Assembly (NCBI GenBank): GCA_016187745.1
Contig: JACPJC010000005.1
Coordinates: forward strand, 118,659-182,658
DNA: 64,000 bases
Origin: Candidatus Iainarchaeum sp.
Lineage (GTDB): Archaea; Iainarchaeota; Iainarchaeia; Iainarchaeales; JAXPJC01
Reading direction: 5' to 3'
Made by a program: the position numbers and the translations under genes. This document shows positions 6,307-9,123 of this stretch, piece by piece (the stretch's first letter is position 1; every line of letters begins with the position of its first letter). The notes below the pieces were generated by a model that was not told the DNA's origin, ran no database searches, and saw only the letters and a list, made by a program, of their open reading frames with translations.

Positions 6307-7593
6307 TTATTTATTTTCCTGAACATCTTTTAATTGCTCGGGTTTCATCAACTCGCGCAGCACAGTTGTTGCGTAATTCCCCTTTTCCAGTGTGAATGAG
6401 ATTTTCGCCTTGAGCGCGCCCTCGAAATACTCATCATATGCAATTTCCTCAAGCTTCAAATCCTGCGGAAACAGCAGAATTGTTTTCCTCGCGCCCTTTG
6501 AGCTTATTTGCGGAAATGCCTTTATGTAGAAGTCTTCCGGCTTTATTCCTTCCTTGCCAAGCACTTCCCTCTCAATTTCCCCGACTTTCCCCTCAGAGAA
6601 TTTTGATTCAAACCCGAAAAGCTGCGCGGTTGCAATTCCATCCTCAAGCACGTCCCCCTCTGCCGCCTGCAATCCCAATCCACTTTCAATCCGCTTATTT
6701 ATGATTTGATTGAATAGATAGCTCTGATACGCATGCGTGAACATGTATGTAAGGGACTTCGGCAGGCGCGAAAAGGCCCCGACAAAATCCTTGGGGTATT
6801 TGCACAAATGATGGATTATTATCCTCTCATAGCGGTATTTCGGGGGGAACTCATTTATTGCCCTTGAAAAGTCCTTCGTATCCGCGAGATTCTTCCTCGC
6901 ATTTTTAATGTCTTCCTCTTCCCTTTCATCAATTGCCGTCAGGTAGAGCATTACTGCATTTTCAGTATTTCCCATTATGAATTCCTTCCCCACGAGATGC
7001 GTAATTCCGCGGATTCCCCCGAAGCGCTGCTCCCCGAAATAATTCGCAATTCCCCCTTTAATTTCCCCAAAGCACGCATTAATGCGCCTCTCCAGTTCCT
7101 CCTTTTCAAGCTGCAGATTGCGCACCATTATTGTGAATTTATTCCCGATCAAATCCCCGATTTCAACCCTCTTATCGCTCCACTCCGCCTCCCTCAGGTC
7201 AATATAGCGCGAATCAAAAGCCTTCAGCAGCTCAACATCAGCCTTCCATATTGAAATGCGCTGGCAGGTTATTGCGCGCTTGTCCTTCATTCCCGCAAAC
7301 CCAATCCTTTTCCTGCTCGTGTGCAGCGCCCTTGCAATTCTTCTCAGCGCATTTGCGGTATCAACATTGAATTTTTCCATCTTCACTATCAGCTGATTCT
7401 CCTTAGCCCTCTCATCCGCAAGAGGCGCCGGCCATTTCTTCTCAAGCGTTTTTTTCTCCGAATCAGTAAAAACCATGGCTTCGCAAATTTCATTTCCGGG
7501 CGCAACTTCCTCCACAATGAAATCCGCAATGCGTTTCCTCAGAACGCCGCCAATTCCCGGAGCGGAAGTCGAATAATGGTTTATTGCGCTCAA
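6307..7593 (-). CDS. truD: tRNA pseudouridine(13) synthase TruD
   Basis: DFIVEE, GFAGMKDKRAITCQ, NYFGEQRFG, HAYQSYLFN, KGNYATTVLRE. Confidence 0.95.
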   Translation of the reverse strand: MSAINHYSTSAPGIGGVLRKRIADFIVEEVAPGNEICEAMVFTDSEKKTLEKKWPAPLADERAKENQLIVKMEKFNVDTANALRRIARALHTSRKRIGFAGMKDKRAITCQRISIWKADVELLKAFDSRYIDLREAEWSDKRVEIGDLIGNKFTIMVRNLQLEKEELERRINACFGEIKGGIANYFGEQRFGGIRGITHLVGKEFIMGNTENAVMLYLTAIDEREEEDIKNARKNLADTKDFSRAINEFPPKYRYERIIIHHLCKYPKDFVGAFSRLPKSLTYMFTHAYQSYLFNQIINKRIESGLGLQAAEGDVLEDGIATAQLFGFESKFSEGKVGEIEREVLGKEGIKPEDFYIKAFPQISSKGARKTILLFPQDLKLEEIAYDEYFEGALKAKISFTLEKGNYATTVLRELMKPEQLKDVQENK

Positions 7594-7875: not shown

Positions 7876-9123
7876 CTACCTATATCTCAATATTGCTCCG
7901 AGCCCGCCGAAGGTTTTGTAGAACTGCTCCCCTTCCGCGGTTTCTGTTGAAATTAATTTCATTTCCGCATCAATCTTGTGCACCTTTTCCAGCAGCCAGT
8001 CTGCATAATCCACTTCCTCCATTATTTCAGCCTCGGCATTGCATTTTGTGCATTTTGGGATTCCCCCCAAACCGAAGCGGTTTTTCACAAGGATTTCCTC
8101 GTTATTATTGCAGTGCCCGCAGAGCAGCCTGTAAACAACCCAGTCTATCGCCTCAGAAACCAGAAGGGTTTTTACCTTTCCCTCAGCAAGCGCAGTTTCC
8201 ACTTCCTTCTGCCCGTAGGTCGCAAGCGCGCCCTTCACAACCTCCTGAAGGAAACTGTTAACAGCAAGCCTTTCCTTCATTACCTCTGTGCTTTTCAGTA
8301 TTTCCTCGCTTTTCTGGAACAATTCCCTTATTCCGGACTCATCAGTGTAGGAAGTGTCAAGTGTTCCTAGCACCATCCCCTTAAGCCTGTAATCAAGCAG
8401 GTCCTGCTCAAGAAAATAATTTTTTGTGGCGCCAGGCCCCCCGATAATTATGCCCTTCATTTTATTCCCGTATACAAGATAGATTGCGCCCATTTTTTCC
8501 GCAATGCGCTTGAAGAAGTCGTGCGTTGCCTCTTCCCTCAATCTCTCATACCTGTGCGCCGAAAATCCCCCTGCCTTTACCTTTCCCGGAACCGCGGAAG
8601 TTATTCTTCCCAGAACCTCGTATTTCTTGCCCACAAGCGCAGCAAATGTCGCCTCCCTCTTGTCAAGGGTTGCCAATCCATAAATCTCCGAGGGCGCAGC
8701 CATTTCCTCAAGCGGATCCAGATGGAACTGCGAATCGCACCAGTACAATTTTACTTTCAGCCTCCTCAGCGGCCTTACAGTAAAGAGGGTTATGTCGCTC
8801 CTTCCCTCCTGCTCGGAAATATTCCCGCAAAAAACTACCAACCCCCTCTCAGGCAGCTGGAAATTTATCCTTTTGAGGAAATTTGATATTTTCCTGAGCG
8901 CGCCCTGCACATTCTTGCGCGTTGTGGGGCTCTTTATGTTGGAGCTCTGCGAAGTTTCCTCGGTAAGCTGCCCCATAACCAGGCTTCTGTCAACATCCGG
9001 GGGCAAATAAAGTGAAATCAGCTCAGTCCCCTTTCCCTTGAAGGCCTTGAGCATCTTTAGTTTTTTCTTGAATACTGCTGCTTCAGCCTCGTCAATCTTC
9101 TCCAGTTCCTTCATGTTCATCAT
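7876..9123 (-). CDS. prf1: Peptide chain release factor aRF1 (GGQ replaced by GGF)
   Basis: GKGTELISLY, NIKS, YWCDSQF, GGPG, C-terminal CxxC...CxxC insert, FGGLGAILRY; catalytic loop reads KAGGFSAHRY. Confidence 0.95.
   Translation of the reverse strand: MMNMKELEKIDEAEAAVFKKKLKMLKAFKGKGTELISLYLPPDVDRSLVMGQLTEETSQSSNIKSPTTRKNVQGALRKISNFLKRINFQLPERGLVVFCGNISEQEGRSDITLFTVRPLRRLKVKLYWCDSQFHLDPLEEMAAPSEIYGLATLDKREATFAALVGKKYEVLGRITSAVPGKVKAGGFSAHRYERLREEATHDFFKRIAEKMGAIYLVYGNKMKGIIIGGPGATKNYFLEQDLLDYRLKGMVLGTLDTSYTDESGIRELFQKSEEILKSTEVMKERLAVNSFLQEVVKGALATYGQKEVETALAEGKVKTLLVSEAIDWVVYRLLCGHCNNNEEILVKNRFGLGGIPKCTKCNAEAEIMEEVDYADWLLEKVHKIDAEMKLISTETAEGEQFYKTFGGLGAILRYR

Follow-up and report, generated by a model that had tools for sequence, protein, structure and literature searches.

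A natural GGF variant of the archaeal release factor aRF1 in Candidatus Iainarchaeum and the recurrent replacement of the GGQ glutamine by aromatic residues in its order

Can a class I release factor dispense with the glutamine of its GGQ loop? Those parts of the literature that were available to us call the motif universal among class I release factors and state that its methylation is conserved across the three domains of life. The question is raised by the gene for the archaeal release factor aRF1 in a 64,000-nucleotide stretch of contig JACPJC010000005.1 from Candidatus Iainarchaeum sp. (the window, by which we mean this whole stretch). The window belongs to the genome G000, a 91%-complete assembly of 963,943 bases (10 contigs). 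A preliminary description, made from the letters of the window, had noted GGF in place of GGQ at positions 8563–8571, and the codons GGG GGA TTT are indeed read there on the reverse strand. The features concerned are:

7876..9123, (−) strand: aRF1 gene, 415 amino acids (open reading frame; Pfam eRF1_1/2/3; TIGR03676)
9016..9036, (−) strand: GTx motif region, residues 30–36, reading GKGTELI (translation)
8929..8940, (−) strand: NIKS stop-codon recognition motif, residues 62–65 (translation)
8725..8745, (−) strand: YxCxxxF motif, residues 127–133, reading YWCDSQF (translation)
8563..8571, (−) strand: GGG GGA TTT, encoding Gly185 Gly186 Phe187 in place of the GGQ tripeptide (gapless alignment to the GGQ of 4af1_A)
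8563..8565, (−) strand: Phe187 codon TTT (AAA on the forward strand), shared by contigs L095 and L096

The forward strand at 8563–8571 reads AAATCCCCC, and the loop of the encoded aRF1 reads KVKAGGFSAHRYERL. The protein scores 455.3 bits against the aRF1 equivalog model TIGR03676 (cut-off 234.7), and its eRF1_1, eRF1_2 and eRF1_3 domains score 51.1, 125.3 and 76.7 bits, each above its Pfam cut-off. When the protein is aligned over its full length with 4af1_A, an aRF1 of solved structure (E-value 7.6e-75), Phe187 stands opposite the glutamine of GGQ with no gap. GTx, NIKS and YxCxxxF, which we take, as the preliminary description did, to be the stop-recognition motifs, are present as GKGTELI, NIKS and YWCDSQF, and the statement that they are intact was thus correct. 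So was the view that this is the true aRF1 and not a decayed paralog, in that the protein groups with the orthologous aRF1s of the order and not with the short GGxSQ paralogs considered below. Two other identities were ruled out, namely Pelota/Dom34 (TIGR00111, 61.3 bits against a cut-off of 177.65) and acVLRF1 (NF041024, 21.2 bits against a cut-off of 125, with a loop of GGFSA and not GGxSQ). By descent, the window protein is an orthologue of aRF1; because its catalytic loop reads GGF and not GGQ, we file it as a variant orthologue rather than as a canonical member.

Is the TTT codon real, and is it decoded normally? The preliminary description had considered a base-call error unlikely, and TTT is present in the available assemblies. 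The whole gene is present, with no differences, in the Logan contigs of two runs, X1 (word depth 96) and X2 (word depth 63). Two further runs, X5 and X6, are not counted as evidence for the codon, and no RNA data set was listed as containing the gene. The 90% cluster of the protein has 13 members, from NCBI, ENA, JGI and Logan, which differ from one another at up to 20 residues; all 11 members that span the motif have GGF. TTT also persists in L095 and L096, two mutually identical contigs of JGI metagenomes, even though 118 of their 1248 bases are not those of the window gene. Of the differences between the window gene and L095, 102 are synonymous and 15 non-synonymous, and the ratio of non-synonymous to synonymous substitution rates (dN/dS) is 0.03. 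The GGF replacement is real, is fixed in the species complex and is under strong purifying selection, which answers the question, raised in the preliminary description, of whether it is fixed in a clade. Decoding of TTT is ordinary, because the other glutamine and phenylalanine codons of the gene are standard (all 11 of the former are CAG; the latter are TTC or TTT). No suppressor tRNA was found among the 21 tRNAs detected in G000 by a non-exhaustive scan run without the intron option. A crude count of stops at the ends of long frames in G000 (206 TAA, 201 TGA and 108 TAG) indicates that all three stop codons are used.

The aRF1 gene in the window is the sole TIGR03676 match above cut-off in G000. 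The only other frame with an eRF1_2 domain encodes a pelota-like protein of 362 residues, and a profile search of G000 found no bacterial RF-1 domain. The preliminary description had allowed for a glutamine codon in the data or a GGQ-containing aRF1 elsewhere in the genome; the assemblies read TTT, and no second aRF1 was found in the 91%-complete G000. Could such a factor have been missed in unassembled DNA, or could the codon still be an error? The assembly is in 10 contigs and short of complete, and contigs rather than raw reads were checked. We nevertheless consider this very improbable: the same codon occurs in independent assemblies from several sources, a single aRF1 is found in each of the three non-glutamine genomes of the order (G000, G109 and G036) and in five of five checked Nanoarchaeia, a dN/dS of 0.03 is typical of a gene in use, and the downstream neighbour is the same as in the related genome G031. 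The position of this neighbour and of a further element of the gene are:

6307..7593, (−) strand: downstream neighbour of aRF1, 428 amino acids (open reading frame list)
8041..8121, (−) strand: CxxC...CxxC insertion in the C domain of aRF1, residues 335–361 (4af1_A has the second CxxC alone here)

In G031, aRF1 is likewise followed by a 418-residue open reading frame that resembles the neighbour (translations compared by eye only), an agreement that identifies the locus as orthologous. The window gene is most likely the single, orthologous and functional aRF1 of the organism, with phenylalanine in place of the GGQ glutamine.

The distribution of the replacement within the order was examined by a DNA-pattern scan of 196 genomes, among whose non-matches are genomes with an aRF1 interrupted by an insertion. 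Codon 187 is CAA or CAG in 133 of the 136 genomes that match. The three exceptions, G000 (TTT), G109 (TTC) and G036 (TGG), belong to three different families. Extending the scan to the phylum (215 genomes) brought no further non-glutamine case; five other matches of this wider scan lay outside the aRF1 gene or contained a stop, and were discarded. Among the best 120 database homologues, whose source names are ‘Candidatus Diapherotrites’ or Iainarchaeum, 111 have GGQ, four have GGF and four have GGW. The remaining homologue, P0002 (372 residues, 87% identical to the query), lacks about 41 residues covering the entire GGF loop; this deletion, seen in one sequence from one source, may be an assembly or gene-call artefact.

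In a tree of 150 rows, the non-glutamine proteins form three separate, well-supported clades. The first consists of the window protein and P0001, and is sister to the GGQ protein P0003 (support 99–100). The second, also GGF, contains the G109 protein (P0041), P0018 and P0033. The third has GGW and contains the G036 protein (P0087), P0051, P0070 and P0080, to which P0125 was later added, this being the one extra non-glutamine protein among the best 120 matches to a profile built from the seven GGF/GGW proteins. The minimum number of changes on the tree is three (GGF twice and GGW once). A single joint GGF clade was rejected by an approximately unbiased test on a 47-row IQ-TREE tree (p = 0.00916, log-likelihood difference 57), for which the group was chosen after the first tree had been seen. 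The replacement of the glutamine by an aromatic residue arose independently at least three times in the order. Tryptophan is kept in the GGW clade over 64–74% identity and phenylalanine in the second GGF clade over 74–93%, and residue 187 is kept by all members of the 90% clusters of the GGF/GGW proteins. The residue is therefore stable across divergent clades, which indicates that the replacements are themselves old and stable. GTx, NIKS and YxCxxxF are retained in all eight non-glutamine representatives.

Phenylalanine and tryptophan are the only non-glutamine residues observed, and reaching them from a glutamine codon takes three and two base changes, respectively. The one-step neighbours histidine, leucine, arginine, lysine, glutamate and proline are absent from the 136 genomes, 147 database proteins and 17 further cluster members. 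Column 187 apart, the aRF1 alignment was scanned for positions at which the three non-glutamine clades share a residue that is rare among GGQ proteins, and none was found. Two residues after position 187, P0080 alone in the GGW clade has a glutamine; the clade of the window protein has alanine there.

To look beyond the order, 185,579 species genomes were scanned with a strict loop pattern for aRF1-like loci in which codon 187 does not start with C. The pattern demanded lysine at −4 and R[FY]xRL and misses most loops of the Iainarchaeota type (RFEHL), including that of G036, so that the counts are lower bounds. The scan returned 51 loci, comprising 39 short proteins, 10 aRF1s, the G109 contig and a chance match in Blautia. 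The 10 aRF1s (loci L109, L118, L126, L135, L136, L138, L142, L143, L149 and L156; about 363 residues) are from metagenome-assembled genomes of Nanoarchaeia/Woesearchaeota. They have GGFSQ or GGWSQ, NIKD for NIKS, and YRCDQTF, and three that were scanned score 423–436 bits with TIGR03676. In the five genomes of this type that were checked, this protein is the only aRF1. A 121-genome sample from the order of one such genome gave 18 pattern matches, 14 with GGQ (many of them GGQSQ) and four with GGFSQ. The occurrence of GGQSQ in relatives indicates that the later glutamine of the Nanoarchaeia predates the loss of the first. These proteins are, like that of the window, full aRF1s with phenylalanine or tryptophan for the GGQ glutamine; they differ in having a later glutamine that could stand in for the lost one, whereas the window clade (GGFSA) is without it. 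The preliminary description had proposed a lineage with a natural variant; the variant stands, and the single lineage does not, since phenylalanine and tryptophan arose several times in DPANN archaea.

The 39 short proteins (loci among L108–L158) come from Methanothrix, Methanotrichaceae, ANME-2 and other Methanosarcinales, with one from Aenigmatarchaeota and one from Thermoplasmatota. Their loop, GKH[ST]KGG[WF]SQ[KRD]RF, is strictly conserved, they are without NIKS and YxCxxxF, and the two that were scanned score 42–67 bits with TIGR03676. These ‘GKHSKGGWSQKRF’ proteins share with the window protein the fold and an aromatic residue right after Gly-Gly. They differ in their length of 142–387 residues (some of the frames being cut by contig ends) and in a glutamine two residues later, where the window protein, a full aRF1, has alanine. 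In the part of the work of Burroughs and Aravind that was available (PMC6514570), the GGxSQ loop is described for the aVLRF-1/acVLRF-1 type. By motif only, the short proteins fit putative paralogs of the aVLRF-1 type, and not the kind of factor found in the window.

If the glutamine is gone, is its methyltransferase retained? The HemK2/Mtq2 model TIGR00537 is above cut-off in 163 of the 196 genomes of the order and below it in 33. No Mtq2 was found in G000, where the highest-scoring frame, of 306 residues, is unrelated and reaches 37.2 bits (cut-off 87). Six relatives, drawn from three families (G052, G049, G032, G048, G040 and G018), have the Mtq2 gene (about 200 residues, NPPY) right next to a DRG-GTPase gene, and in four of these (G052, G049, G032 and G048) a thioredoxin (Trx)-like membrane-protein gene lies on its other side. 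The same two flanking genes are present in G000 (C8:19351-20538 and C8:20789-21871), separated by a gap of 250 bp in which no Mtq2 remnant was found (best tblastn E-value 0.85). A search of the whole G000 assembly gave nothing better than 9e-5, and these matches are other methyltransferases. Mtq2 was removed from its conserved slot in G000 by deletion and is not missing through an assembly gap. That neither the slot nor the rest of the assembly holds the gene or a remnant of it supports the suggestion of the preliminary description that termination is methylation-independent here. In Haloferax volcanii, loss of mtq2 reportedly impairs growth (PMC6144793). The best Trm112 match (PF03966) in G000 scores 16 bits against 22 and lies within a 309-residue frame; this profile has 40 positions and is above cut-off in only 8 of 14 controls.

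A PLD-like gene of 193 residues occupies the slot in G109. This genome retains elsewhere a divergent 362-residue protein of the HemK2/Mtq2 family, with NPPF and not NPPY, at 91–93 bits, barely above cut-off; its closest matches in relatives are their ordinary Mtq2 proteins, at 28–41% identity. G036 has no Mtq2 match (22.9 bits), and its slot is unreadable, the genome being 68% complete with the DRG gene unassembled. In the GG[FW]SQ Nanoarchaeia, Mtq2 is marginally above cut-off in two of 10 genomes, an ambiguous result. G001, G053 and G054, in which Mtq2 was likewise not found, belong to one family and are 91–99% complete; in G001 the slot (C1 around 403925–406237, L093) is occupied by an unrelated gene of 350 residues.

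Does the aromatic residue have a role of its own, or has the glutamine merely become dispensable? From the sequence comparisons, we think it fairly probable that the window encodes an active, methylation-independent release factor in which the aromatic ring at position 187 has a specific role. Stop codons would be read normally via NIKS, YxCxxxF and GTx, and the two glycines would still allow the loop into the peptidyl transferase centre (PTC). As has been suggested for canonical factors, the backbone amide at residue 187 would promote hydrolysis together with the rRNA. The aromatic ring would pack by van der Waals contacts on A2451, C2452 and U2506, the usual role of N5-methyl-glutamine, and such packing would make methylation unnecessary. 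The altered A-site pocket (2448, 2453, 2499, 2500, 2503 and 2504) may make an aromatic residue acceptable or preferable, this being the least supported step. The published text that was available to us assigns catalysis of hydrolysis to the backbone amide of the glutamine (PMC6742477) and a packing role to its side chain (PMC4691834, PMC5799190), with methylation adding contacts to U2506, A2451 and A2452 (PMC5799190). A ring that packs without methylation would fit the restriction of replacements to phenylalanine and tryptophan, the lack of one-step intermediates and the deletion of Mtq2.

Relaxed constraint offers a different account, in which the glutamine would be dispensable in slow-growing, reduced symbionts, for example after loss of Mtq2, and phenylalanine and tryptophan would be near-neutral, the ring having no specific role. 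All the replacements in full-length aRF1s are aromatic (three origins in the order and the GGFSQ/GGWSQ proteins of Nanoarchaeia), they required two or three base changes and yet one-step residues are never seen, and the residue is maintained across clades of just 64–74% identity. We therefore regard relaxation as unlikely, even though Mtq2 has been lost repeatedly in the order, GGQ genomes included (33 of 196 below cut-off; slot replaced in G001), no aRF1 column besides 187 is co-substituted in the three non-glutamine clades, and the available text of PMC6742477 places catalysis on the backbone amide and not on the side chain.

An inactive remnant or paralog is unlikely because the window gene is orthologous, selected and single-copy, with the length of the Gly-Gly loop unchanged. 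A related proposal is that the GGF factor reads stop codons and recruits recycling but does not hydrolyse, the ester being cut later by, for example, Pth2. G000 encodes Pth2 (139 bits), as do four of four archaeal control genomes, which makes its presence unspecific. Pelota provides a precedent for an eRF1-fold protein without the glutamine that is active in ribosome splitting; according to the same source, as far as it was available (PMC6514570), the loops of inactive relatives are poorly conserved and variable in length, whereas Gly-Gly and the loop length are strictly kept here. With the costly route that it would impose on each protein made, recognition without hydrolysis seems quite improbable.

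If an aromatic residue packs in the A site, is the site itself altered? For 25 genomes of the order, domain V of the 23S rRNA was aligned by MAFFT to rrlH of E. coli, whose numbering is used here, and G000 was also compared with the Rfam archaeal consensus (Infernal). The gene in G000 lies outside the window, and the 23S loci of the order are L062–L089:

C4:27111-29959, (−) strand: 23S rRNA of G000

Motif searches and blastn with E. coli 23S gave no match in G000, because the PTC sequence of this lineage differs. The 23S rRNA of G000 has the lowest model score (2304 bits compared with 2467–2677) and is the shortest (2849 nucleotides) of the 27 scored. No 23S rRNA was found in G109.

The catalytic nucleotides are unchanged in all 25 aligned genomes. 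In G000 and G036, G2061, A2062, C2063, G2447, A2450, A2451, G2505, U2506, G2553, U2555, G2583–U2585 and A2602 are all as in E. coli. Around them, A2448 is changed to G and A2453 to U, C or G in 25 of 25 genomes, A2503 is changed to C in all 24 genomes that align there, and U2504C, C2556A and A2600C occur in most of the 25. The Rfam consensus shows these altered positions in upper case, its mark of conservation. At 2452 there is either C or U, the U occurring together with C2504. U2500C is unique to G000 (one of the 24 aligned there), alongside C2453 and U2499. The PTC residues, which the preliminary description had proposed to inspect, are thus catalytically intact within an unusual A-site pocket. 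The cleft of the A site that lies between A2451 and C2452 is where linezolid, anisomycin and chloramphenicol bind.

The A2453C/U2500C/U2504C triple of G000 is the one reported as natural in Thermoprotei in a preprint (10.1101/2024.11.12.623245). In the part of that work available to us, these changes are described for Thermoprotei and Methanomethylicia; E. coli does not tolerate any of them alone, and resistance to linezolid, anisomycin or chloramphenicol results from them. Its main text is silent on DPANN archaea, release factors and A2503; lists of clades may lie in its supplementary data. A paper on TnaC and L-Trp that was also considered is not relevant, as that tryptophan binds far from the GGQ site.

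The 23S rRNA was found in seven of 14 genomes of the Nanoarchaeia group, a sample far too small for an association test. The GGF-bearing members have changes of their own, namely C2499G and U2500A in both G215 and G216 and U2504C in G218. The GGQ genomes G299 and G312 of this group are canonical at 2500 and 2504; G244 has U2452, G312 is canonical at A2503/U2504, and in G316 the stretch is broken by an insert before 2499–2504. A second, partial 23S with an E. coli-like PTC lies beside the divergent full-length copy in G216 (G216:C4:1-2058; L176, L177), and is possibly bin contamination.

The link between release factor and A-site pocket is suggestive, consisting of an overlap of positions that is not specific. 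A broader reading, in which DPANN archaea repeatedly evolved release free of both glutamine and methylation, with the aromatic residue plugging an A-site pocket that co-evolves with the factor (2453, 2499, 2500, 2503 and 2504), is accordingly one that we hold only tentatively and think somewhat less probable than its negation.

Several observations weigh against an active aromatic factor suited to its own ribosome, and are best considered together. The order-wide 23S changes occur in GGQ genomes too, and the GGF-bearing Nanoarchaeia have the canonical A2503. By the raw profile criterion, the Mtq2 family is missing in just two of the three non-glutamine genomes. The GGQ genomes G001 (99% complete), G053 and G054 are also without Mtq2; its loss is therefore recurrent in the order, does not suffice for the replacement and is not peculiar to it. 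The evidence from X1 and X2 consists of contigs and not raw reads, and the runs may be the assembly's own source. With G000, G109 and G036 at 91%, 72% and 68% completeness, a second factor or Mtq2 could, strictly speaking, sit in unassembled DNA. Finally, GGQ is reportedly essential in vivo in model organisms, to go by the titles alone of Frolova 1999 and Mora 2003.

How does the window protein compare with known systems? With canonical aRF1/eRF1 (4af1_A) it shares the three domains, NIKS, YxCxxxF, GTx, Gly-Gly, the loop length and the single copy; it differs in having phenylalanine for the universally conserved, methylated glutamine, and in the absence of Mtq2 from G000. Pelota/Dom34 shares the fold and likewise has no catalytic glutamine; its N-terminal domain differs and its loop is described, in the available part of PMC6514570, as poorly conserved. 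G000 has its own pelota-like gene besides the aRF1. Engineered glutamine mutants of bacterial RF1/RF2 are laboratory variants of an unrelated fold, whereas the window factor is natural, fixed, recurrent and selected. As cited in the available text of PMC4691834 and PMC6742477, those substitutions (Shaw and Green 2007; Santos 2013) are the basis for assigning catalysis to the backbone amide and to the side chain the packing of the water pocket. Full-text literature searches found no published report of a sole aRF1 without the glutamine. One member of the 90% cluster is already deposited as ‘peptide chain release factor aRF-1’.

A component of translation that is supposed to be invariant would be replaceable in nature, in what appears to be the only release factor of a small symbiotic archaeon, and the methylation system would be dispensable. 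The variants provide a natural test of the debated role of the glutamine side chain (backbone catalysis as opposed to side-chain coordination of water), and GGF, GGW, GGFSQ and GGWSQ are ready variants for termination biochemistry, structural work and engineering. The coincident changes in the A-site pocket suggest that factor and ribosome may co-evolve; if so, the ‘universal’ GGQ would be just one of several solutions, and the contact of factor and ribosome would be open to evolution. The finding also bears on annotation and surveys that take GGQ as the mark of an ‘active’ release-factor homologue.

What might have changed this codon? In nine of 40 relatives (G002, G008, G023, G024, G031, G032, G033, G035 and G040), aRF1 is split precisely between residues 187 and 188 by an intein, giving open frames of 571–928 residues. 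The junctions are AGGQ|CLEPNTL and ...LVHN|SSQRF; the intein lies between the glutamine of GGQ and the next residue of aRF1, a serine. The changed codon thus directly precedes a homing site in frequent use in the order. A full-text literature search found no published report of an intein in aRF1.

A homing-endonuclease intein at this codon boundary might have created or favoured the replacement, through error-prone repair or as an allele that cannot be cut; this concerns origin and would be compatible with any of the readings above, an active factor in which the ring has a role included. The two or three changed bases lie immediately 5′ of the insertion point, and intein-bearing alleles are scattered in the tree near both GGF and GGW clades. 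This support is circumstantial, the neighbouring codons of the non-glutamine alleles look ordinary, and we know of no strong selection for resistance to homing; such an origin is in our view rather unlikely. Further records of the intein are the locus L032:1-2193 and the proteins P0047, P0093, P0095, P0118, P0140 and P0141, and aRF1 forms of 545–574 residues carry PF14890, PF07591 or PF01079. The copies vary, some being large with LAGLIDADG-like motifs, of which the G031 insert has two (judged by eye), and others being mini-inteins.

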